Assembly (NCBI GenBank): GCA_039818205.1
Contig: JBCBUK010000001.1
Coordinates: forward strand, 160,001 to 224,000
Direction: 5' to 3'
Length of the DNA stretch: 64,000 bases
DNA from: Verrucomicrobiota bacterium
GTDB taxonomy: Bacteria; Verrucomicrobiota; Verrucomicrobiia; Opitutales; Cerasicoccaceae
Below, one piece after another: positions 3,001 through 49,700 of this stretch; the stretch's first letter is position 1, and each line of letters starts with the position of its first letter. The notes below the pieces were generated by a model that was given only the letters and a program-made list of their open reading frames with translations, ran no database searches and was not told the origin of the DNA. The translations under genes and the position numbers were made by a program.

Positions 3001-3835
3001 CGACGATGGAACTTCAACCCCAGTCAACTACCATAGCACGAGCAATACATTCTCGAATGGAGATTCGATTTCCGGAACCGATGACGACCCGCTTTACCAA
3101 AGTGAACGCTGGGCCACTACAGACATCGACTACACCATTCCGATTGAGAGCGGAACTTACGATGTGACCCTCAAATTCGCAGAAATCTTTTTCACCAGCA
3201 GCAATTCGCGATTGTTCAACGTTCAGATTGAGGGCGGCGGTAATATCTTTTCCCCAGACCTCGATATATATGCCCAAGCGGGTCACGATACCGCCTTGGA
3301 TCACGTCATCCGCGATGTCACCGTCATCGATGGATCGCTGGACATCAGCATTGTCGATGTCGGCGAAGAAAACCCCAAGATCTCGGCCATCGCGATTGAA
3401 CGCCCAGCCAAACAAGACTTACCCGACGATTCATTTGCAGAGTTCATAAGTATTCACTATACTCGCCCCGTCGGTTTAGCCACCAATGACGAAAACGACC
3501 AGCAAGGCCTTCTCGAAGAATATGCCTTTGGGAATGATCCATTTGTGAGCGACAACGTTATACTTGATTTAACCTCCAGTGGAGCTGATTTCGACTTTGC
3601 CTTTGAGCGTCCGATTGGACTCATCGACTTGGAGTATACCATTGAAGTCTCTCCAAACCTATTGGACTGGTTTGACCTTTCGATGACTCCCCAAACTTCC
3701 CCGATCGACGGAACAATGGAGCGCGTTACCTATAGTGATCTTGAATCCGCCGTGGCATCAATACCGGGTTTTGTTATTGAGAACGGTATGTTTGTTCGCA
3801 TCAATGTGTCACTTACGCCCATTCCCGCGGAATAG
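1..3835 (+). CDS. Secreted multidomain protein, 5'-truncated by the window: PQQ-type glucose/sorbosone dehydrogenase-like propeller, PKD, CBM6, Ig-like, uncharacterised beta domain, malectin, C-terminal verrucomicrobial module
   Basis: Frame is open from base 2 (ERPD...HHQAGCMRFD). Motifs: DLRGKIIRI, MGARNPFRFSID, GDVGPD, GNFGWPY; PKD YSWDFGDG; CBM6 IDDGDWI/GGTIEVRSGSPTG; malectin DDPLYQSER/VTLKFAEIFF/RLFNVQIEG. Confidence 0.85.
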   Translation, partial: ERPDTPGVGNNPQGHHQAGCMRFDADGNLLISIGDNTDASGFAPRNDNRLIKDARRASANTNDLRGKIIRIKPDVGQGPAAHPNYTIPAGNLFSQTTSTERAEIYVMGARNPFRFSIDPHTGWLYYGDVGPDALNDGGGSFQGPAGHDEFNQVRSAGNFGWPYYIGFNRAYRDGSGNEWTPATISSDLNSYFNRIGVTAETTIPSPLPAWITYTYLNHLGFPEMRKQAEGIREGRAVMAGPVYEWRAGASDNAFPRYHDKTVFLFDFTRGLVAEAKTDSDGNLLDLKRFLPNQGFSGPIDMMFGPDGMLYYIELYNGSLRRIAYSAGNLRPTAIASADQTSGPLPLSVQFTGDLSSDQEDGSNLTYSWDFGDGTPNSSLPNPSYVYQFPGTYNVQLVVTDTDGLSANTNLTIYAGNSAPTIAFDAPYNNSFFDWGDDIGFDIVITDAEDGSSANGAIDPANVLFEGSLGHVRHQHNESQINALRGTDDVARDDSHGFDDDVYYVFDAYFTDQGAPGVGPISVQATSTLRPKILMAQLFDENQGVTIQATQDPLGGVEDVSSIDDGDWICFQALNLYQIEALRFRLASVFGGTIEVRSGSPTGPLLATASVSPTGGNDQYTDTTVSIAGTSTPIDLYFVFENTSNPSDIFRLNWIGFRGQGATTYAGLPQLTEARMLSSNFINLVFDQAMDYATTSDPSNYSLDNGATVTDVTISPDQESVTLTTTTLANGNYYNLSVSGCEDLAGDAIADSSFVLFNSNIQDAFFLGINAGGTQYEDSEGRVWFGEIASVASSRLINVDFNDSTPENMSGPAAVGNSGDLWNSISVSGGWTSINGNNLTRANGGTSNISMNLSSFESSGGALDGFFFEQGDLPDSNIATSIESLTSDYTYMPNTNNSGNNSSNAGAYFIFTLTGLDTNLDYDLYLYGSADGSNQGARFTYNGVSRSTVNSTTNRTDPVEGEDYVVFNSARPASDGSITVRIENNGAGTQWFNIAGFQLFIDDGTSTPVNYHSTSNTFSNGDSISGTDDDPLYQSERWATTDIDYTIPIESGTYDVTLKFAEIFFTSSNSRLFNVQIEGGGNIFSPDLDIYAQAGHDTALDHVIRDVTVIDGSLDISIVDVGEENPKISAIAIERPAKQDLPDDSFAEFISIHYTRPVGLATNDENDQQGLLEEYAFGNDPFVSDNVILDLTSSGADFDFAFERPIGLIDLEYTIEVSPNLLDWFDLSMTPQTSPIDGTMERVTYSDLESAVASIPGFVIENGMFVRINVSLTPIPAE

Positions 3836-4832: not shown

Positions 4833-7352
4833 ATGTTAATCAAACGAATCCCTCCTAACCCAGGGAAGCTTTTAGCGTTCCTGGGTGTCTTGTTCATTGC
4901 TTGCTGTCAGCAAGGTTTTGCGCAGAAGCAAATCGCCTATATTCACGGAGACGTAGCTCCTGACGGCACAGTCCCCTCGGGCCCCGCAAATCCATACGAT
5001 CAGATGCTGCTGACCGATTCCGGCAATACGGGTATGTCCCTGTTCAAAGCGATGGTCGAAGCCGAAGGCTACATCATCAACCAATACTACGACCAGAACA
5101 CCACGCTGAACGCGAGCTTCCTAAACCAGTTCGATGTCGTGATTTTCGGTCTTCATCAGAAGATCTGGTCGGCCTCCGAAAAGTCTGCTCTAGACACCTG
5201 GATCCGTGCCGGCGGTGGCATGCTTATCTACAGCGACTCGGCATCCGGTGGATTCTTCCAAAGCGTCGGCGCACAGAACCCAGTTGGCCAGACCGTCACC
5301 AACAACTTGATCTCAACCTATGGGATGCAAGTTACGGTGGACCAGGCAAACGGAACCAAAGCGTATCGTTCTGGACCGTCACCAACTCACCCAATTGTAG
5401 CCGGTCGTCCAATTTTTGAGGGCGAAGGCGTTTCACCGGTTGCGGTTGCTGCGAACTCGGGGGTTGAGATTTTGATCCCCTATGAGAACAACCCCAATTA
5501 CACGGTCTCAGGGAGCGCAAATATTCCGCACCAGCAAAACATCACGATTTCGAATCCTAGCTTTGCCGCACTAGCGTTGAAGCCCTTAGGCAACGGAAAC
5601 CTCATCGTTCAGTTCGACCGTCAACCGATGTGGAACAATGGCCCCGGCTCAAGTATTATCAAGCGCGACAACGAAGAAATCCTTCGGCGCATCGTGCGTT
5701 TCCTTGCGGGTGACCTTGGAAACAATTCCGGAAACCTGAGCGTCTCTGCGCGTTCCGAGCTTCTCATCGCCCAATCGGGAGTTGCGAACTTGAGTGCTTC
5801 GGTGACTGGTGGAACTCCGACAGCCTCGTCCTGGTCCAAAGTCTCGGGTCCTGGCAGTGTGACGTTCGGCAACAGTGGTGCATTCAACACGACCGCATCT
5901 TTCAGTCTACCCGGGCAATACCAACTGCAGTTCAGTGCCTCCAACGGTTCAACCAACTTTGTTGATACGGTGGACATCGAAGTCGTCAACGGCACTTCGG
6001 TACTGCATGCAATCAACTGCGGTTCGGGAATCCTGAGCGCCACAACCGGTATCAGCTACACCGCGGATAACTTTTTCACTGGCGGACATATCGATGCCTT
6101 TGGCGGAAACGCCGTGAGCGGGACTCAAGACGATGCCCTCTATAACAACGCACGCTCAGCGGCGAGTTCTTACAATGTTCCTGTCGCCAACGGAAGCTAT
6201 ACGGTGCTCCTACAATTTGCGGAAACATTCTTCACCGCAAACAATCAACGGATTTTTGACGTCGCGATCGAAGGCACGACCGTGCTCGACAATCTCGATC
6301 TTCACGCTCAAGCCCCTGGCAAGTTCAACGCTTACGATGCTATTTTCGATGTCACGATCACCGACGGGAGCCTAGACTTAGCATTCAGCGCCTCGGCCAA
6401 CAATATGCTTCTCAATGCATTCGTTGTCGTTGAAAGCGCCTCGCTATCGCTTCCGGGACGTATCGAGTCTGAAGACTTTGACCAAGGTGGTCAGAATGTC
6501 GCCTACTTCGACACGAGCGCGGGTAACTCCGGCGGTCAATACCGTTCAACCGACGTCGACATCCAGATTGCGAGCGAGGGCGGCTTCAATGTTGGCTGGA
6601 TTGCACAGAATGAGTATCTGAACTACACCGTCAATGTCGCGGAAACAGGCGTCTACGACTTCACCTTCCGCGTAGCGTCAGCCCAAAGCACCGGCAAGAC
6701 TCTCCATATCGAAGTTGATGGCGTTGACGTTTCTGGACCAGTCAATTTCAACACTGGCGGAGCCGGTTGGCAGTCCTGGCAGAACGTCGTGGCAACCAAC
6801 ATCAACCTGACCGCTGGCGCCAACCAGGAACTCCGAGTCGTGATGGACACTGGTGGCTTCAACATCAACTACGTCGATGCCGTCCTTGTTCCGATGAGCA
6901 ACCAACCAGTTCGAATTGAAGCCGAGGACTTCGATGACGGCGCCAATGGTGTTGCCTACTCGGATACGACTGCCGGCAACTCGGGTAACCAGTATAGAAC
7001 CACGGACGTAGACATCGAAGTGTCGAGCGAAGGTGGCTTCAATGTCGGATGGATTGCCGCTGGCGAGTATCTAAACTACACGGTCGATATCAATGCCTCA
7101 GGCAGTTACGACTTCACCTTCCGGGTCGCGAGCCTGGCTAGCACTGACAAGACTTTCCATGTCGAAGTAGATGGAGTCAACGTGACCGGGCCGATCACCT
7201 TCAACACAGGGGGTGCGGGTTGGCAATCATGGCAAAACGCAACCGCATCAAATGTAAGTCTAACGGCTGGTATTGGGCGAGAAATCCGCATCGTTATGGA
7301 TACGGGTTCGTTCAACATCAACTATTTTGAGATCGCGCCAAGCGGTCAGTGA
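4833..7352 (+). CDS. Secreted glycan-active protein: uncharacterised N-terminal alpha/beta domain, PKD-like, malectin, two tandem CBM6
   Basis: Signal peptide; WIRAGGGMLIYSD (GATase-like fold); WSKVSGPGSVTF; LQFAETFF...RIFDVAIEG; two RIE(S/A)EDFDxG...NVGWI...YTV modules. Confidence 0.8.
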   Translation: MLIKRIPPNPGKLLAFLGVLFIACCQQGFAQKQIAYIHGDVAPDGTVPSGPANPYDQMLLTDSGNTGMSLFKAMVEAEGYIINQYYDQNTTLNASFLNQFDVVIFGLHQKIWSASEKSALDTWIRAGGGMLIYSDSASGGFFQSVGAQNPVGQTVTNNLISTYGMQVTVDQANGTKAYRSGPSPTHPIVAGRPIFEGEGVSPVAVAANSGVEILIPYENNPNYTVSGSANIPHQQNITISNPSFAALALKPLGNGNLIVQFDRQPMWNNGPGSSIIKRDNEEILRRIVRFLAGDLGNNSGNLSVSARSELLIAQSGVANLSASVTGGTPTASSWSKVSGPGSVTFGNSGAFNTTASFSLPGQYQLQFSASNGSTNFVDTVDIEVVNGTSVLHAINCGSGILSATTGISYTADNFFTGGHIDAFGGNAVSGTQDDALYNNARSAASSYNVPVANGSYTVLLQFAETFFTANNQRIFDVAIEGTTVLDNLDLHAQAPGKFNAYDAIFDVTITDGSLDLAFSASANNMLLNAFVVVESASLSLPGRIESEDFDQGGQNVAYFDTSAGNSGGQYRSTDVDIQIASEGGFNVGWIAQNEYLNYTVNVAETGVYDFTFRVASAQSTGKTLHIEVDGVDVSGPVNFNTGGAGWQSWQNVVATNINLTAGANQELRVVMDTGGFNINYVDAVLVPMSNQPVRIEAEDFDDGANGVAYSDTTAGNSGNQYRTTDVDIEVSSEGGFNVGWIAAGEYLNYTVDINASGSYDFTFRVASLASTDKTFHVEVDGVNVTGPITFNTGGAGWQSWQNATASNVSLTAGIGREIRIVMDTGSFNINYFEIAPSGQ
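6459..7340 (+). repeat. Intragenic tandem duplication of the CBM6 module, 453-bp period
   Basis: RIESEDFD at 6459 and RIEAEDFD at 6912; near-identical translated modules. Confidence 0.9.
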
Positions 7353-7473: not shown

Positions 7474-8484
7474 TTAAAGGAATGGATAATCATTACTCAA
7501 TAAGCCATCTTTCTTCAACATCCTCCAAAACTCTGACGGTAAACTTTGCTCAACAAAGCTTACGTTATCGGCCACTCGCTCGGGCCGACTCGTATTCAAG
7601 GCCAATGAGACGACTCCCGGAACACTCAGACCAAACTGACAACAAGCCAAGGCCGGGCTAACGTTGTGACGTTCACAGATGGCGAAGAATCGATCGCGCC
7701 AGTCAAATAACTCAGGGTCGCTTTCGGGTGACACTTCTCGGTAATCAAACCACTTCCCTCCGATTAGAAACCCCGCATTGAATACCGCAGAATTAATCAT
7801 CACAACACCGGCGGCGTTAAGTCTGCTCATAAACTCCAGCAGCTCCATTGGATGCGAATACAAGGTGAAGCTGTTTGCAAACATGACCCAGTCCAAGGGA
7901 ACGCCGTCATCAAACAATCTCTGAATGAGTCGCCAGTCTTTGGATCCGACGCCAACGCCAATTACCTGTTCTGACTGTCGCAACTGAGATAAGGCTCGGT
8001 AGCTATCAAGCACTCGATCGTAGCGTTTTTTCTGCTCTTCCTCACTCGAAGCCCGGGCGATAAACTCATCGGGGTCGTGCACCGATACCAACTGAGAACA
8101 GTAGTCCCCAAGCAGCTCATTTCCTTGCTCAAAGCATTCGAACATCTCGTCGTATCCCATGCATTCGACGACATCGTGGTCGATGTCGATCCACAAGCCG
8201 CAGTCGAATGTTGGCTCTGGACCCGACATCGGAACCCGTTTCCATCCGATCTTGTTGCTGATGACAACTCGCTTCTGGGGAACGTCTAAATCCTTCAGGC
8301 AACGTCCAATACTCTCCAAGGCCAAACCCGCTCCGTATTTACCGGCTGAGTCGATGACAGCAAGATTCGGCTGATGCCTGAGCCATTGCTCAACGATCAA
8401 TCGCTTCTTCTCATAGGGAACTGCTTCGTAGAGGTTACCCAGAGCACTGGAACCATAAACTATTTTGGGAATTTCAATATTCAT
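7474..8484 (-). CDS. Aldo/keto reductase (D-threo-aldose 1-dehydrogenase-like)
   Basis: [39 protein letters not shown]. Confidence 0.85.
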
Positions 8485-8496
8485 GGATCACTTGAT

Positions 8497-9252
8497 CTAA
8501 AAGCCAATCGATGCGCCACCATCCACCGGCAGGACAACGCCGGACACAAACTTTGCCGCCGAACTACAGAGATACACTGCAGCGTTACCGATGTCATCTG
8601 GATCACCAAACCGACCCATCGGAGTCCGCCCAAGAATCTTGTTCTTGCGGGCGTCATCACCTTGGAGGGCCTGATGGAGCATGGGAGAGTCGATCCATCC
8701 TGGCGCGATCGCATTCACCCGAACTCCTTCGCCAGCAAGCTCCGCGGTCAATGAGCGAGTCATACCAACCAAGGCTGATTTTGCGGCGGAATAAGCGACG
8801 ACAGAGGGCATACCGATCAATGCGGTCATCGACGCCACAAACAAGACACTACCCCCGCCCCGCCTCTGCATCCCTGGAACGACGGCCCTTGTTAGGGCTT
8901 GGGCCGCTGCCACATGGGTCAGCAGGACCTGATCGAATTCCTCCGGGGTGGTCTCTACCAAAGGCTTTTTCAGATGCACGCCCGCATTGTTCACCAGGAT
9001 GCTAAGGTCACCAATTTGCTCAACGAGCGCTCTAGCACTTTCGCGTTTGCAGACATCGTGAACCATGTAGCTCGCAGACTTCCCTAAAGTCTCAGCAGCA
9101 TCCGCCAACACGACCTCTCGCCGCCCAACAATTGTGACTCTCGCGCCGGCGTCGATCATACTCTTAGCGATTCCGAAACCAAGACCGGAACCGCCTCCGG
9201 TGATCAATGCTGATTCACCCTCAAGAGAAAATGGATTGTTCAAAGACTGCAT
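8497..9252 (-). CDS. Short-chain dehydrogenase/reductase (gluconate 5-DH/KduD-like)
   Basis: [29 protein letters not shown]. Start moved to MQSLNN. Confidence 0.9.
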
Positions 9253-9266
9253 AAATTCAAATTCGG

Positions 9267-10484
9267 TCAGGCTCGGCACCCCTCAATCAGGCTGGGTACG
9301 TCTTGGTGTTTGTAGGGGATGAAATACTCCCGATGGCCTAATGCTTCCGGCTTACTGGGCTGGCCACCTGCCACGCTGACAACGAGTTCGAGAAGCTCAC
9401 CCGCTGCTTCTTGGAGGCTTATCTCGCCATTGAGAACTCGCCCGGCATCAAAATCCATATCGTCCGACATGCGAGTATACGTTCGGCTGTTCCCTGTAAC
9501 TTTTACCAGGGGTGCGATTGGGCTGCCAATAACACTACCTCGTCCAGTTACAAAAAGTACGATCTGGGCACCAGCGGAAATGAGATCCATCAAACCTTCG
9601 CTATCATTCGGGTTCGTATATCCAAACTGCATATAATGCTCGTCGGGAACTGAATCCATTAGCCACAAGCCCGCGTGAACCGGTGCTTGGGACACCTTGA
9701 TCACGCCTTCAATTGGCTTCGATCCGCTTTTGGCAAATGCACCCAAACTCTTTTCCTCAATGGTCGTTAAACCGCCAGCAAAGTTTCCCGGAGAGGCTGA
9801 AAACTGGCGCACTTCGCGACAGTAACGCTCGGCCTTGTCATAAGTTGCTGCTAGTTCGGCGGCGACTTGTTCGCTTCTGGCCCGGCTTAGGAGAATATCT
9901 TTCAAGCCAATCTGCTCGACTATTTCCTCAAACACCACCGTGCCACCCGCATCAACTATTCGATCAAAGAGGCGACCAACTACCGGGTTACCAACCAGTC
10001 CAGAGGTCGCATCAGATCCGCCACATTCGCAGCCGACAACCAGATCCTTTACGCCCATCGGAACTTCTTCCAATTGGCCAACTGACTCATCCTTGAGGGT
10101 TCGAAGGACCGCTTTTCCTCGGGTGATGCTCGCCTTGGTGCCACCCGCATCCTGGATAAAAAAGTGAGCACTGGGCCGGCCCGATGCCTCAACGACCTCG
10201 GCAATGCGTCCAGGCTGGGTGTATTCGCAGCCAAGACCAACGCTCAGTACCGCGCCCACATTTGGGTGCCGCGCCAGTGCAAGCATCAACCGGATCGCGT
10301 AAGCATTGTCGTAGCAACCGGGAAAGCCAATAACATGTACCTCCTCCTCACCCTGACTAATTGCATGAGCCACAAATTTCGCGCACTCAACCGTGTAGAC
10401 AACCAGCGTGATGTTCCGGATACCGACACGACCATCCGCGCGCCGGTACCCCTTCCAAGATCGTGTTGACGGACACTCAGACAT
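9267..10484 (-). CDS. UxaA/GarD-family sugar-acid dehydratase, large subunit
   Basis: [56 protein letters not shown]. True start MSECPS at 10484. Confidence 0.9.
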
Positions 10485-10806
10485 ATTGCGTGTCAGTTGG
10501 CGCTCCGGAATGACCATCGAGCGTATTGGATCGTTCATCGTAGTTGCTCGCGCAGTTGTGCAAATGAACCCAATCACCTTTAGAGATTGCGTTGGCCGCA
10601 TACCCGATCGCCTTGCCATATTTAACGACGGCCTCGCCAGCCTCAATGTCACACAGCGCCACTTTATGCTGCGCCTTGATCTCTTCGATCGACATAACCT
10701 GCTGCTGTTCCGCGACTCCCCGCAAGAGTATCTTCGCTCCCACGGGGCAATCGACCAGAGCGGTAGCGACATTGTCGCGATTGTTTATTTTAAACGCAGT
10801 ATGCAT
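10477..10806 (-). CDS. SAF-domain small subunit of the UxaA-family dehydratase
   Basis: [33 protein letters not shown]. Confidence 0.9.
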
Positions 10807-10811
10807 TGCAC

Positions 10812-12221
10812 CTAGCCCTTGGGTGATTGGAACCAAGAGCGTTCAATTTCCTCAATCGTTCTGCCCTTGGTTTCTGGCATCAAGAATCGGACGGTCAAAA
10901 GAAGGAGAATGAGTTCAGCAGCGTAGATGAAGAAAATCGTCGACGTCTCCATGTTTGCCTGCATGACCGGAAAGATCATATTCAAGCCCGCACTGGTTAC
11001 CCAGATTGAAAACGTGGCCAAAGCGATTGCTTTTTCCCGCACACGGTTGGGAAAGATCTCCGATATAATCACGAATTTTACCGGACCCAACGCACACGCG
11101 AAGAACGCGATAAACAGATTGATCGCGATGACAATGGGCCAACCCATGACGTTCATTTCAAAGAGAACGCCAATCAAGATGTGGGAGAGCATGGCGCCTA
11201 CTGCCCCAATAGTGATGAGCTTCTTTCGCCCGGCGCTGTCGATAAGTGCCAGCGCAAACAAGGTGGCGACAAAGTTGACGATCGCGATCGTTGCAAAACC
11301 GCCGAGAGAACCACCTAGACCAAAGCCAGCGTCTTCGAAAATCTGGGGACCGTAGTAAAATACGACGGATACTCCACAAGCCTCAGACAAAATGCAGATT
11401 AACAATCCCAGAACCAAAGGCTTTCGCAAACGATGGGTGAACAGATCAAAGAACTTAACTCCACCTTCATCGGACAACGCAGATTCGATATCTTGACGAA
11501 CGGACCTTGCCTTTGCGGCACCGTTTACTTTCGCCAACACACGCTCAGCCTCATTGGATCGATTGCGTTTAACCAGCCATCGAGGGCTCTCCGGAATAAA
11601 AAAGACGCAAGCGAGAAACAGAATACCAGGAATCGCCTCAGCGAGGAACATCGCCCGCCAGTTTTCATCAACGGTCAACCACCGCCAAAAATCTGTTACG
11701 TCATCTGAATTTGAATTGGCCTCGGCCAAATTGAAAATGCCCCAGTTTGCGAACACACACATCACGATCCCGATCGTTATCGTAAGCTGGAAGAGCGTGA
11801 CCATCTTACCGCGGTGCCGTTCAGGGGAAATCTCCGAGATGTAAAGTGGGCACACCATCGTTGCCGCGCCGATACCCAAGCCGCCCAATAGGCGCGCCAT
11901 AATTAAGGTAACCGGCCCCGAGGCAAAGCCACTCCAGCTGGCTGATACAAATATCAGAATCGCAGCCATAGATAGGGTTAACTTTCGACCAAACCTGTCT
12001 GAGATCGGTCCAGCCGAGGCTGCACCAACGGCACAGGCCCAAAGGACACAGCTAACGTAAATTCCTAGCTCCCAGGGTGAGAAATCGAACTGCGACTCAA
12101 CTTGCGAATTCGTCCCAGAAACGACAACCGCATCGTAACCAAATAGAAGGCCTCCGAATGCAGCAACGAGGCATACAAACCAAAGGTATATCGTTGAACC
12201 GTGTTCTTCGTCCTGGGGCAT
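10812..12221 (-). CDS. MFS sugar porter (XylE/AraE-like)
   Basis: [46 protein letters not shown]. Confidence 0.95.
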
Positions 12222-12251
12222 AAGTCGGTTGTTTGAGATAGTCTATGGCGC

Positions 12252-12923
12252 CTAAAGCACGCCGTATTTTTGGAATGCCTCCGAGCTCGACATGCCATTG
12301 TGCTCAATCTCCTTCCGGACCAAATTCTCGGCAAGGGCTTTTTCAAAAGCCTGCTGCAAAACCACTTCTTCATGGCGACGTGGAATGATCACCACCCCGT
12401 CAACATCTCCGAAAACTAGGTCGCCAGGCTCAATCCACACACCACCGACTTCAATCTTGCACCGATAGTCGGCTACCTGGGTGCGCACCCGTGAATCCTG
12501 TGCGTAGCTACCACGGCTAAAAACTGGCCAGTTTTGCTCCAGAACCTTCGGCGTATCTCGGTGATAGCCATTCACCACGGCGCCGACAGCGCCTCGACTT
12601 TTTGCAGTCGCGGTCAGTATCTCACCCCAGTAGGCACAGCGCATGTCGCCTCCGCTGGCTATATAGACTTCTCCGGGCTGCAGCTGATCCAGCGCTTCGG
12701 TCAGCTTGCCAAACGGCTGCTTCTGCTCGCCATGGACATCGATCATTAGCACCGGCATTGCCCGACCAACTACGGTCATACCATCAAGCATTGGCTGAAC
12801 AGGTTGCGGAAGGAACTGGTGATAGCAGTCCAATCCATCAAGAATATCACCAACTACCGGGGTATATAAATACTCACTGACTTGCTTAAAGCGTGTGGAG
12901 TCATCTGCCGCAATTTCCATCAC
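12252..12923 (-). CDS. RraA-family / HMG-aldolase-like protein
   Basis: [37 protein letters not shown]. Confidence 0.85.
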
Positions 12924-13045
12924 CTAATCCAATCAACCCTCGGTCCAGATTGGCTAGAGCAAACAGGTCGCCAGGTTGGCCGGTGACCGATATGGCTAGC
13001 TCAAGTCGACACCATAGCGGCTCTCAACTGGCAATGGCTTTAAGC

Positions 13046-13079
13046 AAAAAAACGGAAGTAGCCGTCGAGACTACTTCCG
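13046..13079 (-). terminator. Intrinsic terminator downstream of the GH29 gene
   Basis: Minus strand reads cggaagtag-tctcgacgg-ctacttccg then T7. Confidence 0.7.
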
Positions 13080-13116
13080 CAATTGAATACTTAATGCCAG
13101 TTTGGAAGCTGAAGTC

Positions 13117-14652
13117 CTACCAGTGGGTAAACATGTAGGGCTCAAAATCAAAGTCGTCACCAAATTCAGCAATGATGACATCCGTTACTTTCCCCGCCTT
13201 TAGATCATTCGGAACCCACATCTTGAGTACACCATCAGCATATTCGAAAGGTAACTGGTCTCCGGTGCGCATCAGGGTCACAGCAACCGGCTTCTTGGCA
13301 CCTTCAAAGACGATGGGCTTGTCCTCGGTCGCTTCATTATCCATCGCGTGAAAGAACCAAACATTGTCCCGGCAAGTAACAGGCACATTAGCCTTTTCAG
13401 GCCACGGACCACCACCATTGATTCCAAACACCGAATCTTTGTTGGTGCTCATCCACTCCTCCATTTCGCCAAATAGACGGTAAGCGTCGTCTTGCATACG
13501 ACCGTCTGGCCGTGGACCGAGGTTTGCCAGAAGATTGCCGCCCATGCATCGAGCCATCGCGAGCTCTTTTAATACACGGTCAGTATCGTAAACGTTTTCG
13601 CCATGGTGCTTATCATAGTGCCAGGAACCACTTTGAATGATGGCGTTGACCTCCCACCACCAACCATTTTCAAGTACTGGCTTACGAATGTATTGCGGTT
13701 GCGCCATGTGGAAACCTTCCGCAGTCGCGTGGTCACCGTTGCTATATCCACGGTTGTTGACAACGATTCCCGGGCGCCAGGCACGAATTTTCTCGATGTC
13801 CGCGCCATGCCCTCCGTCTCCCCACCAGATATCTGGACTAAACTTGTCGATGACTTCTTTAACCTGGTTCTCATTGAATTCTGCGTATGCTTTCGAGAAA
13901 CTGGGTGGCCGTTTTGGCAACGACTTCACCTTATCACCGTTGAAATCCACGATAACATTCGGATCCATACTGAAGTTCATATAGTCTCGCTCAAAATACC
14001 AGTCCATGCCCGAGTAATAGAGGCCGACCTTGATGTCGTTGTTGCGACATGCTTCAACCCAGGGAGCCACTAAGTCACGGCCATCCATGGTCTGACGCAC
14101 TCCGATTAATGCATAGTCAGAATCCCACATCGCGAATCCGCCATGGTGCTTCAAGGTCAGTACTGAATACTTGAAGCCAGCCCGCTTGGCAGCCTCCATC
14201 CATTTCTCTGGATCGTAATCGGTCGGGTTCCACCCTTCCACAGATTCCCACAGTTCTGTTTGCGGATAAAAGGCACCTCGATCCTCACCTCCTTGCGTCC
14301 AGCGACCACTCCAGCCTTCTCCATTCGGCTCAAACACACTCGGCAAGCCCCAGCAGAGGAACAAACCTAGACCCGCTTCTGGCCACCATTGTGCATCCGG
14401 GTGATCGGTCCTTTCCGTGGTGACATGAAGCTTGCCGTTCGTCCATTTATTCCACTGCGGCCAATAGTAAAAACGCTTTCCGTCGCGTTCCTCAATTCGC
14501 GGAGTGACAGTCTCCCCAGTGATACGGTCACGATAGGCTTCCGCACTACCATCCTCTGTCTGCGATGGCTTAAAATTTGCCTCGGCAGAAAACGAAAGCA
14601 TCAACGATAATGCGATGCTCAAAGTGGTTACATTGCTTAGTTTTAATTCCAT
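13117..14652 (-). CDS. GH29 alpha-L-fucosidase-like glycosidase, secreted, divergent active site
   Basis: GLGLFLCWG, DPEKWMEAAKRAG, LTLKHHGGFAMWDS, GLYYS, WWGDG, GGNLLANLGPRPDG; signal peptide. Confidence 0.85.
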   Translation of the reverse strand: MELKLSNVTTLSIALSLMLSFSAEANFKPSQTEDGSAEAYRDRITGETVTPRIEERDGKRFYYWPQWNKWTNGKLHVTTERTDHPDAQWWPEAGLGLFLCWGLPSVFEPNGEGWSGRWTQGGEDRGAFYPQTELWESVEGWNPTDYDPEKWMEAAKRAGFKYSVLTLKHHGGFAMWDSDYALIGVRQTMDGRDLVAPWVEACRNNDIKVGLYYSGMDWYFERDYMNFSMDPNVIVDFNGDKVKSLPKRPPSFSKAYAEFNENQVKEVIDKFSPDIWWGDGGHGADIEKIRAWRPGIVVNNRGYSNGDHATAEGFHMAQPQYIRKPVLENGWWWEVNAIIQSGSWHYDKHHGENVYDTDRVLKELAMARCMGGNLLANLGPRPDGRMQDDAYRLFGEMEEWMSTNKDSVFGINGGGPWPEKANVPVTCRDNVWFFHAMDNEATEDKPIVFEGAKKPVAVTLMRTGDQLPFEYADGVLKMWVPNDLKAGKVTDVIIAEFGDDFDFEPYMFTHW

Positions 14653-14718
14653 ATTTAAGGGTCTCCTCTTGAGAATAGACTCAGCGTGTCGCAGCTTCAG
14701 GAAATATTCAACCCAAAA

Positions 14719-14734
14719 ATGTGCACGTGCACAT
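14719..14734. promoter_or_regulatory. Candidate LacI-family operator
   Basis: Perfect 16-bp palindrome ATGTGCACGTGCACAT with central CG, between divergent GH29 and LacI genes. Confidence 0.65.
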
Positions 14735-14790
14735 CAATGTGATAATGAATGGACAAACCGGCTAGAACCGTATCAATATGCGACAACTGG

Positions 14791-15825
14791 ATGAAGAATC
14801 AGACTTACAAGAACAGCACCGCCACATTGGTTGAAGTTGCCAAGATTGCTGGTGTCTCCCGTCAAACCGTTAGCCGAATACTCGGATCGGAAGCTAACAA
14901 GCACAAACCAGAGACGGTTAAGAAAGTTAAGGAGATCGCGAGCTCGCTCGGCTACCGGCCTAATCTGTTGGCGAAGAGTATCGTAGCGGGCAAAACGAAT
15001 AGCATCGGCATCCTTGTTCCCGTAATCAACAGCTTGGACGGCTTCTTCACGCAAGTCACCTATGGCATTCAATCCGCACTGATCGACACGGATATTATAC
15101 CAATTTTTCTTCACGCCTCCCCTGATGCTCCCGAACATCACCAGATCCACCGATTGGTCGACCGGCGGGTTGATGGCATTATCCTAATTCCTCAGAAAAC
15201 GGACGTTGCTCCGGATTACTTCTGCGAGATCACCTACCGCCGAATTCCGGTTGTCTGCGTGAACGAAAAGCTCACCAACATCGGTGCTGTTGATTTTGTG
15301 GGAACCGATGAAGCACGCGGTGGTCGTATCGCGGCTGAATATCTGTTGCGCATGGGCCATACAAACATCGGCTGCCTCCGCTGGAGCGGGAGTTCCGTCA
15401 ATCTTGGAAAACGGCTCCAGGGATTCACAAAAACCATTCATGAAGCTGAAGCCCGCCTCCAGGACATTGCTTTAGACGATTGGACCATTGATGGCTGCAT
15501 GCAAACGCTTTGCGAGGCACTCACCCAGCCAGATCGCCCAAGCGCATTTTTCTGCGTATCCGACCAGTATGCCGGTATCCTGTACAAGGCCGCCGAAAAA
15601 CTTGGCTTAACCATTCCAGACGACTTTTCAGTCCTCGGCTTTGCTAACCTTCCCTGGAGCGAGTTTCTATCGCCATCCCTAAGCACGATGAGCCAGGACG
15701 GCCAGCGCATTGGCGTCGAGGCCGCCAAACTGTTGCTTAGCCGCATCGAAGGCTCGACTGACCGCGCAAAAAACAAACGCGTCCCGGTGCGGCTTATTCA
15801 ACGCGATTCAGTGGCTCCTCGCTAA
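14791..15825 (+). CDS. LacI-family transcriptional regulator
   Basis: TLVEVAKIAGVSRQTVSRIL, LGYRPNLLA, IPDDFSVLGF, PSLSTM. Confidence 0.95.
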   Translation: MKNQTYKNSTATLVEVAKIAGVSRQTVSRILGSEANKHKPETVKKVKEIASSLGYRPNLLAKSIVAGKTNSIGILVPVINSLDGFFTQVTYGIQSALIDTDIIPIFLHASPDAPEHHQIHRLVDRRVDGIILIPQKTDVAPDYFCEITYRRIPVVCVNEKLTNIGAVDFVGTDEARGGRIAAEYLLRMGHTNIGCLRWSGSSVNLGKRLQGFTKTIHEAEARLQDIALDDWTIDGCMQTLCEALTQPDRPSAFFCVSDQYAGILYKAAEKLGLTIPDDFSVLGFANLPWSEFLSPSLSTMSQDGQRIGVEAAKLLLSRIEGSTDRAKNKRVPVRLIQRDSVAPR

Positions 15826-24357: not shown

Positions 24358-26859
24358 CTATTGATAGGTAATCTCGAGAACTGGGTTGGTCGCACCTTCC
24401 GAAGAAGAGAACCATACGTCGTTACCACCGCCATCCATGGTCACAACGAAGGTGATTTCTCCATTGCCAATGGAAGTGCCGAGGTCGATTTCCAGAGATC
24501 CGCCGTTAGCGTAGGAGCCAGTGACGCTACCGAGCTGAGCACCTTGGCTAGGCGCATTGCCCGCGGTGATGCTTGCTTCGGTCCAACCAGGGTTGCTGTT
24601 CCCCTGATATACGCGCACGGTGCCGCTACCCGACTCAGTATTCTGGAAGACCAGCTTAGCACCGGTAACCGTTCCACTTACACCGTTTACGTCGAACTTC
24701 AGGTAAGAGACTCGGAAGTTTGGCTCCACCTTAAGATTGGTGTCGTTGAACGGAGTCGAGCCCTGGATATAGGCGTCTTGGGTTGGGTTCTCGGTGACCG
24801 TTCCACCGGAGCTACCACCGCTTCCAAGTGTGAATTGGACCTGAGAACAATTGTCGTAAGCGGGGCCATTGGTCCAGTTTTCACCGACGTTATACAAACC
24901 TGCGGTGAACTTGTAAGTACCTGCTGGTTGGGTGCCGATATTCAGCGGAATCGTAGCCGTCGACGTCCCGGCAGGAACCGTTACCGTATTCGCGCCAATC
25001 CAGCCGTTGTCAGAAACGCGACGAATCTCAAGATAGATATCACGAGAAGCGGTTGCCTCATAATCCAATGCGATGTTCACGGTGCTTGCGTTCGCAACCG
25101 TGGACGGTAGCGAGGAGCACACCAACGCATTGTTCGTTGGGCCGGTACCGCCAGAAGTCAGACTGAACTGGATCTGTGAGCAATTATCATAAGCCGTTCC
25201 ATTCGACCAGTTCTCACCAACGTTATACATGCCGGCGGTGAACTTGTAAGTGCCGTCAGGCTGAGTCCCGATGTTCAACGGAATCGTAGCCGTCAAAGTT
25301 CCAGCCGGAACCGTTACCGTATTTGAGGTAACCCAGCCATTATCGGAAACGCGACGAACCTCAAGATAGATATCGCGAGAAGCGGTCGCCTCGTAGTCGA
25401 GGGCCACATTGATCGACGTAGCATTCGTAATTGTTGCGGGCAAGCTTGAGCAAACCAATCCATTGTTCGTCGGACCCGTGCCGCCGCCAGTGACCGAAAC
25501 ATTTACCGTCGCGCAGGTGGCGAAAGGATTCTGCCACCCAGCGCCAACTGCGCGCAGTGATGGTCGTAATTCACCTGCGGTACCAACGGCGGGTGCGCCT
25601 CCGTTTGGTGTAATGGTCACCGTTGCGGTACCAGAACCAGAGCCAACGGTGGTACGGAAGGTGCCACCCCAAACGCCATTGCCATACCACTCAACCGTTA
25701 CATCGCGGGGTCCAGCAGCCGAATACGGGATCTGGACATCAAACGACGCGGCTGACGCAACCGAGCTCGGCAACTGGCTGCAGTCGATGCTATCGTTTCC
25801 CGGGTTACCTCCGACAGGGCCTGGGACCGGGCCGTTGGCACTATTGGTATTGGTGACATAGCGATTCCAGAACTTCTGGATCGTATTGGCGTTGGTGCCG
25901 ACGTTGAAGATGTACCAGGTCTCCGCGGTGTCAGAGAAATCGACGCCACCATTGGAGATGTTGGAGTAACTTGGGAAGAAGCCGTGAGCGGCCAAGACAC
26001 TGTCCGCCTCAAGCCAGAGGTTGCGAGCGTGGGTGTTTGGGTTACTATTCGCCTCCGCTGAGGTCTGCCAATTGTTCGCCGAGCTGTTGTAGCCTGGGGT
26101 CGCGTTGTTACCATTACCATCCGCGATACGGCGGTAGTCCGTGTTGTTACGGACCCACTCAAGAACCGTTGCCTGACCAGCCGGAACTGAGCCACCACCA
26201 CTGATGCCACGCTTCGGTGTGGTCGTCGTGTTGTTCTCGTTCCAATTACTATGCTGCACAACAATGATCCGGTTGCGCGTATCGTTTGCCGTGTATCCGG
26301 TCGTGTTGATCAACGACTGAACCCAGTCACGTGTGAAGTCCATGTTGCCGGCGTCAGCGACGTAGACATTACCACCGCGATCAAGAGCCGTCTTGGCTTT
26401 TGCCACAACAGCATTGACGGCTGGAATCCAGTTCGTGTTCTGTCCCCAGTTTGCGCTGCCCGATGCGGGGAAATTCGAGTTTTGAGGGAAGGTATTGCGA
26501 TTGCCCATACCCGCTTGTGACCAGCGACCTGGCCCAAAAGCAAGGTCCATCAAAGCTGGAGCCGGTATAAAGTTATTGTTCTCGCAGACATTACAGTTGT
26601 AGCCCTGCATGCCCACGGTGCCTTGGACACCGTAGAAATCAACTCCATGAAGGTCGGGGTGAGCCAACATCGAGCCGACCGCGGCTATCGCTTGGATATC
26701 GTCCGGGTCCGGCTTACTGTCGAACTGGGCGATGTATAAATCCTTCGTCTTATCAAAATTGATCGTCGGAGGATTGTTGTTCACCGGGGTTGGTGATTGA
26801 GCTTGAGCCGCGTAAACAAACGCAAGCGAAGCAAGCCCCGCGAGGAGGTATTTTTTCAT
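24358..26859 (-). CDS. Secreted modular protein: DxxPDxDD catalytic-like domain, three Ig-like repeats, C-terminal DNRLRE/CBM96-like domain
   Basis: Signal peptide; [30 protein letters not shown]; three CSxLP...Y.A...RD modules; PTQDAYIQG...SYLKFDV...SSE. Confidence 0.75.
24820..25490 (-). repeat. Intragenic tandem duplication, 333-bp period
   Basis: cattgttcgt at 25128 and 25461; two near-identical ~111-aa GTGPTNN.LVCSSLP... units. Confidence 0.9.
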
Positions 26860-43723: not shown

Positions 43724-46700
43724 ATGAAAACAAATCGCCTCCTACCGTGTGGGTTCGCTTGCGCTATCCTTGTTTTAGCACATTCGCTCAATGCCCTCAC
43801 CTACCCAGAATGGGTAGGGGCTACCAATCTCCCAACGAACCAATCTGCACCGAATCAGAACCCAGACGGCGACCCCTACAATAATGGGCTCGAATATGTG
43901 TTCGGTACCGACCCACTCGTTGCGGATTCAGCAGAAATCGTGGGCCCCTACATCCGTGATATTGGCGGGGCACGTCACTTCTCTTACATGATCAACAACG
44001 ACCTCGATGCGGAAACCAGGGTCATGTATGAAAACTCCACTGATCTCGCACCCAATGGCTGGTTCTCCAAGGCCTTAACCGCTCAAGGTGGCACGGACCC
44101 CAACTACCCCAACTCAACGCGCTACAACGAAATCATCGACCAGAATGATCCACGTAACTTTTATCGCCTGACATTCATAATTGATTACAGCCCAACGCTG
44201 GAGGCAAAGATCGAAGTCGCCGTCAACGCAAGTGAAACCTGGGACGGTTTATCGGGCGGTCTCCCGCCGATCACTAAGGCCTATATCTATCAGAAAATGC
44301 CGGTGGTAACCAATACCACGAACGAAGACGTCAGCCGCTACCCTCGGGTAATTGGAGCTGATCAGGCAGGAACGACGCCAAACTTTGAGCAGGACTATTT
44401 TGGCAACGGCGTCCGTGCACCCATCCGCAACTGGATGGGATGGTTTCTGTGGGGTAATGGGATGCCACCACCCGAACGCACCGCTGGTTATCCTTACAAC
44501 TGGGATGGCCCAATATCAGAGGACTGGGATTTTTACGCCTGGCAGTTTACCGATCCCGAGAACCTCCGCACAACCGGCAAATGGCGCCCAGTCCGAGTCG
44601 ACCAACAGCCGCTATACATGCATCCGCTGCGCCTCAACTACAATTGGGCACCAGGGCGCTTCGGCTACGAAGCCCAACCCATGCAGCATTTCCCCGGCGA
44701 AGCAAAATTTTGGAAAGATAAGAATATTGTCCGCGGAGTGAATCTTTCACCGAACTATCCTTACTTCATTCAATACGGAAATCGGATCCAAGAAGCCGAT
44801 GTCCCAAATTACCCGGACTCCTGGCGCGAGCAATGGCTACGGATGAAACTGCGTCCACTTGAAACCCTCGTCCTCGTGCCATCGGTATTGCCCCCGACCG
44901 ATCTAAACGACGACGGCGAATACCTGCTAGGCCAAGGCATCTGGAACCGCGTCGCCGACAATGATTACGAAGTCTTCCCCTACCCGGTCTTTAACTCGGA
45001 GACATCCCCCAAAGACCAGACTCCCTATGGCATCTTGACCGACCGCATCGGAGACTGGCATGCCGACCTGGTGTTCGAAGGCGGACACCCACGGCTCACC
45101 AATTACGATCCCGTGCGCTACTTCCGCACGCGCTTCAGCGAAATGGCTGACGGTAATTATTTGAAGATGACTGTCGCCCAGGGTTCACCGTTCGTCTGGT
45201 GCGAGTTCGCGGCGACTCGTGCAGCTCCTAGCGACCGGGATCGCTACATGATCTTCTACAACTTGATTCGTCTGAACCTGGAGGGTGCTATCGACAACAA
45301 CGGTGGCTACCAATTCCCGGACGGAGGCAAAACCGTCCCAGGCACTGATGCCGAAACGCTTGCGGGTGGTCCCTGGGAAGTGCCTGGTGTTGATGGCGTC
45401 AGCTATGTCCTCCTCTACGGAAATCAAAACAATCCCAACCAATGGTTCATGGAAGTTGAGCCCGAGTATGGGAAAGTGCCCGACCCGCAGCAAAAGGACA
45501 ATTTTGTGCCTGGCGGTTTCAATCAACCTGGCGATCAAGACAACCACACCTACTTTGCGATATTTTACCGCACCGATTCGGTTGAGCCGGTCACGCTGGG
45601 TAGTGGCGGCGCAAACTCCGCTGACAACAACGGAACCGACGCCCAGGGCAACCCATACTTCTTCCTAAAATTTAAGGAAGACGACCCGACCTACATTGCG
45701 ACCAAGAAAAACTGGTTCGTCGTCGGCCAAGTGCCCGTCATGCGCTATTATCATACCGATGTCGCGCGCGACGATCGGGCTGCACTCGACCAAGCAGCAA
45801 AAGACTGGGCAGACGAGATGGGCAAATACGCCTTCAACTTCCTCACCGAAACGAAGGTCGAATACTCGGTTACAAACATGAACCGCGTCGACTCACTGTT
45901 CGATGCCACCTATGCAAACCCCTACGAAGAAGCCGGCGCGACCAATGCCGCTGCCATGACTGCTGACGGGAAATCGGTGTGGGCACTTTTTCCTCACCAC
46001 TATCAGCCACTTACTCTCGGACCGGACCTGACTAAGTCGTCTCGAGATCAAGTGGTCTGGGAGCCACTCCAAACCGCCGGGATAGACTTCCCGTCCATCA
46101 CCGGTGCGCCCAACGCCAACAAGAGCACTCCCTCGACCAATTCACGTTGGGATTACTGGCATCCACGAGGCAACCTCAAGTCCGTCATCACGGACGACTT
46201 TGAACTGGCTTATCCTTTCCAAAATTTCTTACCCGCAATGCCTGAGCCCAAATGGGACACTAAATACCGGCAGTCGGGCATTCAATACCTCACACTGGCC
46301 AACGTCGCTGGCTACGAACAAATCACCGACACGGTTCAGGCAACAATTGTCGACAAACGGCCCGACAAACAGGGTGTCGGAGCCTCATTCGAGGTTCTAC
46401 TCGAACCATTCACGGGACGTATTCTGCAAGTTGATGTCATTAACAAGGGCCACGGCTATCCGATCGGTGAGCCTCCACCGACAGACCTTGTCGAGCTCGT
46501 CATTGACCCGCCAGCTGTGCCATTGGACCAAGGTGGTCGCCAGGCAAAAGCACGCATGCAGATTAATGGTGAAGGCCAAGTGTTAGCGGTATTCATGGAC
46601 GACAAAGGCGCGGGTTATCGCACCACAATTCAGGTCACCCAACCGGGTAATCCGAACGTCGAACCCGCAATCATCGAACCAAAATTTGATGGCAACCAGC

Positions 46701-49700
46701 GCATGATCGCGGGACCAGCCACCATCATCTCGGGTGGTTCCGGCTACGACTTTTCGCAACCGTTCACGACTCAGATCATCGGCAAGAAAGTCGGAACGGA
46801 AGAACCGATCATCACCATCTCAAAACCCGGTGAAATTTACGGCATCACCAACACTGGAATCGGTGGATTCGACGCCACGGGCTCCTATCCACTCATCAAT
46901 GATAGCTTGGAAGACACCGCTGCAAACATCGTGGCCGAACTACCGCCGCCTCCCGGCGGTGGCTCCGCTCCCGAGCTTGAGGTCTCCCTTGTAAACCTCA
47001 ACGCACTCTTGGGAGTCGCCATATTTGACCAAGGAAGCTATACGACCAAGCCAACGCGTGCCTATTACATCGACGATGATGATATTGAACAAACCCTGCA
47101 GGGAATGGAGTTCATCGAAGACGCCGTTAACGGCACGTTCCACCTTGTCCACCTTAGGAACCCGCTCACACCAACAAAGGTCTCAACCCGCAAACCGGTC
47201 GTATTCGAAGGCGGCACTGGCGACGCTGCCGAAGCCTATGCTTACCCAGCAACTACGATCAGCGGAATCTCGATTAAGCCAGGCACCGCCGATGATGTCT
47301 TCTATCCACAATCGGTAGACGTCGCCATCTCCGGCGGCAACATTGGCCCAGGCGCGAACTTCGAAATGCCCGAGTTCGACCTTAGTGTGGGCAACGATGG
47401 CAAACTAGTTTTGAATGGGTTCAAAGACGGCAAAATTGGCAAAGGCTTCAATCAAACCGCAAAATTCTTTGTCTACGGCGGCCGCGGTAAAGATGCCGCG
47501 ATGCTACCGACGGTCGATGAGTCTGGCACCATTACAAGTATCGACATCCTCCGCCCAGGAACCAACTACCCAGTTGGGGCTGTCAACGCAGTCATACGAA
47601 GTGGTTCTGGAGGCTCCGGCGCCGAACTCCAAATCAATGTCAACTCAACTGGCACGACGCCTGAAGATCGGTTCATCGAATCCGTATCCATCATCAACGG
47701 CGGCACTGGCTACAGCGCGAGCGATACCGTGGAACTACTGCAGAATGTTGGCCTAAACAAGACAGCATCGCCACCTCGCGGCGCTTACGCCCGCATCGTC
47801 GCCGAACCGAATGGAAGTGGAGGTCTCGAGAATCCAGCAATCCTAAACAACCTAGCTCAGGAAGGCTACTTCCCGGGGTTTGGTGGGACGACCAACGATC
47901 AATCGGGCCGTTTCTACCTCGCCTATGATTCCACCACCAACGATCCTGGCAACAACGATACAACCAATCAGCAAGTGCTCTCACCGCCGTCCCAAGGGGC
48001 TGGATTCGTCACTAGTTTGGTGCCGCAGGAGATCAACGTAGAGCAAGTTCTATACGACAATACGATCGGCCAATACCAAACCAGCATGTCCCATGGCGTG
48101 CGACCATTCGGCGGTGCCTTTGGAGGTGCCACCGCACCCGACGGTTATGGTCTTGGCAATCAGCTTTCGCGGACGGTAAAGGATGTCAACGTGCTCTACC
48201 ACTTGTCTCAGGCTTATCCCAACGGTAAACCAAGCGTCACTCCAAGCAAGTGGGCATTCAATGCTGGGCGAACCCCGTATATTCCGCCGCCTTACAATGT
48301 GGATCCCACAAAAGCGCCGCAACCAACCTACGAAGAAGGCCTGCCGATTCTGGCGGCGCACAATCCAATCTACTCCCTTCAGAATGGGTTGAAGACTTCG
48401 GTTCAAATGATGCAGCGGACCCTGACCCTGCTTCACTATTGCGATGATGAGGGCCGCCCCTACCACAATAACCCAACGGACGATCTCGTCTGGAAGATGG
48501 ATTATTTCTCATCCTACGACATCAATGCTGGGCGTATCCTGATAAACCCGAGTTCAACCATTCCAGTTGACGGTGTGGTGAGCTCTTACTTTGACCCGCC
48601 AGCACCCGACCCGGCAGACAACCAAAAGCAAGGGCTCCTCAAATGGGAACCTGGCAAACTGTGGAGTGGCTTCGGCGTTTCTGATCAATGGAACGACCAG
48701 CACTATTTCTTCGGTTATTACCTAGGCGTTGCCGGATGGGCAGCCATGTTTGATCACTCTTGGGACCCGAACATAGCGGGACGCCCAGACAAGCTCTGGT
48801 CCGACCAAGGAACCCTGGCGACCGATATCATGCCCGACAGCGACGGCATGGGTACTGCGCTCGATCAGTGGTTCCTCTCGGTGGCAAACGATCCCGACAA
48901 CGAGGCGCTGCAGAATGCCGTTTATAAAGTGCCTGAGTTCACCTACCAAAAGTTGCCCTTTATCGACCAATGGACCGGACATGGGTGGGCAACTGGAGCA
49001 CAGCCAGGCCCAGCAGGCGCCGTGCTCGATGTGGATGTCCCCTGGGCAATCGCGCAATCATCGGGAACCTCGAACTTCAAGTTTGGTGAGGAAAATGAAA
49101 ACTCCGTCTGGGAAGGCCTGCAGGCCTTCAGCGCCGCGATCCTCTGGGGTGCGGGAACGGATCGCAAACCGCTCATGGACGTCGGAGTCTACATGCTCGC
49201 AACGGGCATGGCCGCAAACGACATCTACTTTGCCGACAAGAACTATAACCTCACTGAGTCCGATAAAAACCAATTCTCTTGGGTGCCCGTGACCACCATC
49301 GCATCGAAGGATCTACCACTCGACCAGAATGGCGGAAACCTTGGTTTTAAGATCAACTCAAGCTTTGTCACGGCGGTGAATCCGCAATACTACATCGCGC
49401 CAGATTACTTTGGCGGTGAAGCCTCGACGGGCATTTCTCTAATCCGGAAATATGGGCCGACCTTGAACAACTTCTTCTACGCCTTCCCGACGGGCACGAA
49501 GTTCATCACAGCCTACCCGCCAGCGGCATGGACCATGGGGCTCTCCCGCAATAGCGACTACATGCGCGCCTGGGCTGGAGCGATGATGCAGCAGGACTGG
49601 ACGGACGCCAAAAACTCAGCTCTCTACCAAGGCGGAAACTGGGTCGGCATGGCGTTGACCTCAGCAATGTCGGGCGTCCCCTATAACCCAGGTGACCTAC

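Follow-up and report, generated by a model that had tools for sequence, protein, structure and literature searches.

A probably secreted modular protein of a Verrucomicrobiota bacterium joins a domain of predicted nucleoside-hydrolase fold to homologues of a porphyran-binding module

Background

Nucleoside hydrolases (NHs) are described in the accessible text of PMC8910321 as carrying the fingerprint DxDxxxDD and as holding Ca2+ through two aspartates of the β1-α1 loop, one aspartate approximately 230 residues later and one carbonyl; the chemistry of the fold is Ca2+-assisted glycoside hydrolysis. According to the same text, XopQ keeps the fold and the Ca2+ site and does not hydrolyse nucleosides, and Sde_0182, which also keeps the Ca2+ and is inactive on nucleosides, was proposed to be a binding module and has no assigned activity. 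Of the NH-fold domains, only Sde_0182 is known to have a link with polysaccharides.

The galactose-sulfurylases were called unique to red algae in the available parts of three papers, whose authors had BLASTed such enzymes. In the portions consulted of the background texts (PMC10311240, PMC7359372, PMC8307928, PMC4659905, PMC5970526, PMC7551501, PMC8910321, PMC4483632, PMC9771727 and PMC11122601; bioRxiv 10.64898/2026.01.12.698930 and 10.64898/2026.03.31.715562) and supplementary tables (PMC7359372, PMC5970526 and PMC5402284), porphyran is the EC 2.5.1.5 substrate, two Chondrus sulfurylase II coding regions measure 837 and 894 nt, a third listed gene spans 1845 nt, the sulfurylase II family alignment has 263 positions, and production of the protein is a long-standing problem. 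Genicot-Joncour 2009, Hehemann 2011 and Rees 1961 are cited via these texts. The literature searched, which left most subscription papers outside its scope, held no bacterial sulfurylase II homologue and no mention of the domain family described below.

The window analysed here is a stretch of 64,000 nucleotides from a Verrucomicrobiota bacterium (GCA_039818205.1, contig JBCBUK010000001.1, positions 160,001 to 224,000). An original prediction made from its sequence had placed at 25850-26800 a possible bacterial counterpart of a red-algal galactose-sulfurylase, fused to glycan-binding modules.

Architecture of P0001

The region 25850-26800 corresponded to aa 20-337 of an 833 aa open reading frame, P0001, with the following features:

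24358-26859, (-) strand: whole gene P0001, modular protein of 833 aa (open reading frame)
26800-26859, (-) strand: likely Sec signal peptide, aa 1-20 (judged by eye)
25846-26766, (-) strand: N-terminal domain without a family name, aa 32-338, predicted nucleoside-hydrolase (Sde182-like) fold (AF2 model, structure match and conservation)
26698-26724, (-) strand: FDSKPDPDD, aa 46-54, β1-α1 aspartate loop and putative Ca2+ site (secondary structure of the model; residue mapping inferred)
26335-26376, (-) strand: 14-residue motif, aa 162-175 (sequence)
26236-26271, (-) strand: 12-residue motif, aa 197-208 (sequence)
26113-26136, (-) strand: YRRIADGN, aa 242-249 (sequence)
25921-25941, (-) strand: DFSDTAE, aa 307-313, with D310 as putative distal Ca2+ ligand (conservation; mapping inferred)
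25489-25800, (-) strand: repeat 1, aa 354-457, homologue of the porphyran-binding module 8WAE (repeat alignment and profile)
25156-25467, (-) strand: repeat 2, aa 465-568, same module family as 8WAE (repeat alignment and profile)
24820-25137, (-) strand: repeat 3, aa 575-680, 8WAE module family (AF2 model matched to 8WAE)
24364-24801, (-) strand: C-terminal CBM96 module (PF24517), aa 687-832 (Pfam, E 7.4e-16)

All five N-terminal motifs quoted in the original prediction were found in this open reading frame, and the three repeats that it had placed after the N-terminal domain were present as β-sandwiches of approximately 105 aa each. The tail had been described as DNRLRE/CBM96-like; CBM96 was recovered (58.8 bits against a cut-off of 26), whereas the NCBIfam DNRLRE model did not match P0001 and matched two paralogues only. 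Judging from the N-terminus, P0001 is likely to be exported.

Repeats 2 and 3 were 81% identical to one another, and repeats 1 and 3 were 33% identical. A phmmer search with the repeats gave PDB 8WAE, entitled 'a novel porphyran-binding carbohydrate binding module', as the sole match. The original prediction was right in likening the repeats to porphyran-type modules: a profile of 14 repeats matched 8WAE with E 8.4e-26, and the AF2 model of repeat 3 (pLDDT 94.9) matched it in Foldseek with E 4.7e-8 (TM 0.79-0.85). We take 8WAE to be CBM99; a literature search for papers on 8WAE returned nothing relevant. In the accessible text of PMC11122601, CBM99 is listed as porphyran-binding and the listed ligand of CBM96 is alginate.

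Predicted fold and conservation of the N-terminal domain

The N-terminal domain matched nothing meaningful in Pfam, NCBIfam or the PDB sequences, and PDB sequence searches with profiles of the domain returned nothing usable. The AF2 model (pLDDT 82.8, pTM 0.86) was compared with 48,161 chains in a VIA structure search, in which the top 13 matches were all NH-fold. The best was Sde_0182 (2YHG; Z 13.5, rmsd 3.4, 213 aligned); the remaining NH-fold chains, comprising nucleoside hydrolases and XopQ, scored Z 10.8-12.2, and the next row scored Z 7.6. The ESM Atlas also listed Sde182 (0.90), and its named clusters other than PF07632 gave no usable match. The nucleoside-hydrolase-like fold suggested in the original prediction was therefore borne out by structure matches of a predicted model (Z 10.8-13.5) as a purely structural link, but not by profile-profile comparison with Sde182 and NHs (approximately 1% probability, not significant) or by Foldseek of the model against the PDB and a viral library (nothing at E≤0.001). 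The NH profile comparison is slightly weakened because 3 of its 21 NH segments were entered on the wrong strand.

Sequence search revealed 25 homologues of the domain and a profile 153; at 50% identity the family comprised 714 clusters. Named hosts included Coraliomargarita, Rubellicoccus, Microbulbifer, Marinomonas agarivorans and Agarilytica rhodophyticola. Among 335 family sequences, D47, D51, D53, D54, Q202, H203, N207, N249, D307, S309 and D310 were 97-100% conserved, no lysine or arginine of the pocket was invariant, and the position of a semi-conserved H56 was occupied by Gln in P0001. The motifs are not chance, because key residues are 95-100% conserved across the 335 sequences, and a chance open reading frame was likewise ruled out by family conservation. 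The N-terminal domain is thus a real family without a name, of hundreds of clusters and with a predicted NH fold. Two family representatives, P0248 and P0250, appeared eukaryotic by eye, with a leader that carries an RRL motif; no relative emerged when metagenomes were scanned with P0250.

The DD loop lies at the β1-α1 junction of the AF2 model, and D310 follows 256 residues on. D51, D54 and D310, with a backbone carbonyl near A170, may be NH-like Ca2+ ligands. An ordinary nucleoside hydrolase was ruled out, since P0001 departs from the DxDxxxDD fingerprint and did not match PF01156, which was also absent among the 25 families listed, of 30 in all, that matched 51 members. PF07632 likewise did not match P0001 and was absent from that list.

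The altered fingerprint would also suit a non-catalytic Ca2+-dependent sugar-binding domain, in which case the whole protein would be an adhesin or scaffold that makes multivalent contact with seaweed surfaces; Sde_0182 and XopQ set a precedent in keeping the fold and Ca2+ site while being inactive on nucleosides (PMC8910321, accessible text). We consider this improbable. Eleven polar residues are near-invariant in the 335 sequences, many members are stand-alone domains, and in modular proteins the domain occupies the position filled by GH16 or GH86 on chains of the same modules. A scan of 30 long members placed it, in most of them, in the catalytic slot next to CBM6/35/96 and secretion tails.

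Genomic context

The immediate neighbours of P0001 were a GT2 gene, a helical protein without clear family and an AMP-binding enzyme, so the gene does not lie in a polysaccharide locus. Approximately 8.5 kb away (window 7477-15825) were genes for GH29, a UxaA-type dehydratase, an aldo-keto reductase, an SDR, an RraA-like aldolase, a sugar transporter and LacI, a cluster that resembles oxidative L-fucose or L-galactose catabolic clusters. Elsewhere in the window were a 2140 aa open reading frame with no Pfam match at E≤1e-5 (43724-50143) and two modular malectin + CBM6 proteins (4833-7349 and 62-3832), the former of which has an N-terminal region without assignment.

The genome encodes four copies of the N-terminal-domain type, the other three sharing 62, 61 and 40% identity with that of P0001, and four distant relatives (C-type; homologous at 97.9%), the search for which gave 805 matches. 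One copy, on C10, stands immediately 5' of a GH86 gene. The own-genome scan also found one true PF07632 gene, separate from P0001, as well as 12 GH86-module and 51 sulfatase matches; no GH50 module was found, in a search whose positive control also gave no match. Heme oxygenase and ferredoxin-dependent bilin reductase genes stand just upstream of one C-type paralogue (L006:6776-8160).

The 8WAE-type module was present in 12 open reading frames of the genome: two with the N-terminal-domain type, three with C-type, one with GH86, four with DUF5060 and two without an identified catalytic part. The four DUF5060 proteins (L010:6282-9701, L011:6879-11663, L012:6204-10253 and L013:6717-9662) are further candidate porphyran-active enzymes because they carry this module. 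An 813 aa protein (L008:7252-9690) has four porphyran-type modules at its start and no identified catalytic domain. A search for upstream motifs over 28 galactan-type genes yielded nothing beyond weak polypurine or AT-rich words, the background being biased, and its result was rejected.

Gene neighbourhoods of relatives

From 529 confirmed relatives in a GTDB scan, the best 80, ranked by likeness to P0001, gave 79 loci, of which 60 were single-domain and 19 tandem. A galactanase-like gene (GH16/GH86/GH50) lay within 8 kb in 12 of the 60 single-domain loci and was adjacent in 11, where it resembled a porphyranase, an agarase or a κ-carrageenase and which span Bacteroidota and Gammaproteobacteria; none was near the other 48, and a sulfatase was near 6 of the 60. 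Three neighbours checked against the PDB were closest to porphyranase B, a β-porphyranase and a κ-carrageenase, respectively. The 8WAE-type module also occurred on neighbouring porphyranase-like genes in other genomes, and in Reichenbachiella agariperforans the family gene is flanked by GH86 on both sides. With the 8WAE match, the galactanase-like genes adjoining 11 of 60 single-domain relatives supported the earlier view that the protein is modular, probably secreted and directed at a sulfated galactan of red algae. In Marinoscillum furvescens (L019:6517-9878) the gene immediately before the family gene is ferredoxin-reductase-like, and a zinc dehydrogenase and a GH2 are encoded close by, a cluster that presumably resembles a methyl-galactose demethylation cluster.

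The tandem form, which joins an A-type and a C-type domain, was found in 19 loci, all Alteromonadales. A BNR_4 lyase-like or GH78 gene lay within 8 kb in 17 of these, a sulfatase in 15 and a galactanase in none. We call these loci ulvan-type because one lyase-like neighbour was closest to ulvan lyases and another to 5MUK/5MVH, which we take to be BT3686-type proteins. The tandem protein is approximately 720 aa (576 aa in L055; loci L028, L029, L031, L034, L037 and 14 more), and in each of four examples inspected its A domain contained a basic loop.

Among 301 Flavobacteriaceae genomes, the domain was present in 28 and a GH86 module above cut-off in 17. All four long modular forms were in GH86-module genomes (one is the seed genome and another apparently repeats locus L024), compared with none of the 24 short forms; 13 of the 17 GH86-module genomes had no copy of the domain. 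In the 151 genomes of the bacterium's own order, the domain was found in 7, the GH86 module in 8 and both in 4, its own genome among them. These carrier counts span related genomes and are not independent.

Several observations stand against a general galactan role. No galactanase was near any of the 80 metagenome loci, the best of 359; these 80 included 65 short forms, and 25 of them reached at least 8 kb. The closest relative of P0001 shares neither its synteny nor its setting, and cellulase genes of GH5 and GH48 stand next to one modular member. The short stand-alone forms show no galactan link. Their wide occurrence outside galactan loci, the tandem forms in ulvan-type loci and the several different domains that carry the same module within this genome would fit an enzyme for another seaweed-borne substrate (a furanoside, a pyruvate-type ketal or a small glycoside), with the modules serving only to localise it. 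The galactanase-like genes adjoining 11 loci in Bacteroidota and Gammaproteobacteria, and the own-genome copy beside GH86, argue against that explanation, to which we give little weight.

Comparison with red-algal sulfurylases

The motif series given in the original prediction was found in part. DxxPDxDD occurs in 301 of 335 family members (DSKPDPDD in P0001), but the element EGG.SD is replaced by DAGNMD in P0001. As EGG.SD is present in 137 of the 335, the series describes the N-terminal-domain family, whatever label it is given. What stood of the original interpretation as a whole was the galactan-directed modular architecture and the NH-like fold.

No red-algal name occurred among the named matches listed (25 of 25; best 120 of 153; best 120 of 805), most matches being without a name; the 150 of 714 cluster representatives inspected by eye also carried no names. 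Homology of the domain to Chondrus sulfurylase II is unlikely on our estimate. Equally doubtful is the wider proposal that the family is the bacterial counterpart of the red-algal galactose-6-sulfurylase, a Ca2+-dependent NH fold that would close the 3,6-anhydro ring and convert porphyran to an agarose-type polymer.

A desulfating enzyme, homologous to algal sulfurylase II or not, is slightly easier to entertain, and still rather unlikely. Ca2+ and an aspartate would activate either the sugar O3, as in a sulfurylase, or water, as in a sulfatase without formylglycine, and so expel the 6-sulfate. The target would be L-galactose-6-sulfate of porphyran, the O3 route giving 3,6-anhydrogalactose, as the original prediction had proposed. 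Porphyran, the EC 2.5.1.5 substrate, is the ligand of the module homologue 8WAE; a sulfate ester is common to porphyran, carrageenan and ulvan, and loci of all three carry the family; H203 is invariant; and the EGG.SD of the original prediction fits the family consensus despite its absence from P0001. The Chondrus coding regions of 837 and 894 nt and the 263-position alignment would also agree, weakly, with a domain of roughly 260 aa. On the other side, just 6 of the 60 single-domain loci had a sulfatase nearby, and the genome already has its 51 sulfatase matches and 12 GH86 modules. An invariant Lys or Arg that could hold a sulfate is missing from the pocket, and P0001 has Gln in place of the semi-conserved H56. 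The tandem form is found in loci of ulvan type, and galactose-6-sulfate is not known from ulvan. The lack of a red-algal name among the named matches listed also counts against desulfation, as does the description of sulfurylases as unique to red algae by authors who BLASTed them, in the accessible parts of those papers.

Proposed activity and significance

The evidence for the target polymer is stronger than that for the reaction. For the latter, our leading reading, held tentatively and at less than even confidence, is that P0001 is a candidate extracellular calcium-dependent glycoside hydrolase that trims porphyran or agar-type galactan alongside porphyranases. Glycoside hydrolysis is favoured over desulfation, binding only or another substrate because it is the native chemistry of the fold, and the lack of Lys or Arg among the eleven 97-100% conserved polar residues suits a neutral sugar substrate. 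The repeats would hold the enzyme on the algal wall, tethered to porphyran, and an acidic pocket built around Ca2+ would cleave one bond of one sugar unit. Ca2+ might bind a water together with two sugar hydroxyls; with the water activated by an aspartate and the leaving group protonated by H203 or a different conserved acid, a terminal or side-chain sugar would be released. Against hydrolysis stand the structural-only link to NHs and the inactivity on nucleosides of Sde_0182, the closest solved relative, as well as the 13 of 17 GH86-module Flavobacteriaceae without the domain and the position of P0001 outside a polysaccharide locus.

Porphyran is a concrete test substrate, because a porphyran-module homologue is fused to the domain and porphyranase-like genes flank relatives. 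A demonstrated activity of any kind would establish a new family of carbohydrate-active enzymes for seaweed carbon turnover. If the sulfurylase proposal were true, the enzyme responsible for the gelling of agar and carrageenan would gain its first fold, its first mechanism and a surrogate that can be expressed, solving the protein-production problem and giving a tool for upgrading agar and carrageenan.

Comparison with known systems

Like P0001, Sde_0182 of Saccharophagus degradans (2YHG, PF07632) has a DD-ending aspartate loop after β1 and is joined to carbohydrate-binding modules; P0001 differs in having no PF07632 match (profile-profile approximately 1%), in the N-terminal position of its domain and in its porphyran-type modules. 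The inosine-uridine nucleoside hydrolases (PF01156; 4KPO, 3T8I and 1HOZ) share the fold predicted for P0001 (Z 10.8-12.2) and probably the Ca2+ site, whereas P0001 has DxxPDxDD, no Pfam match, a signal-like N-terminus and glycan modules. The repeats of P0001 are approximately 30% identical to 8WAE and add a conserved cysteine pair, homology being indicated by both sequence and structure. The galactose-2,6-sulfurylase II of Chondrus crispus (EC 2.5.1.5 activity) resembles P0001 in being probably extracellular, in its sulfated-galactan context and, for two members, in size; in contrast, the P0001 family is found in ulvan-type loci and in non-glycan settings as well, and had no red-algal match among the named ones listed.
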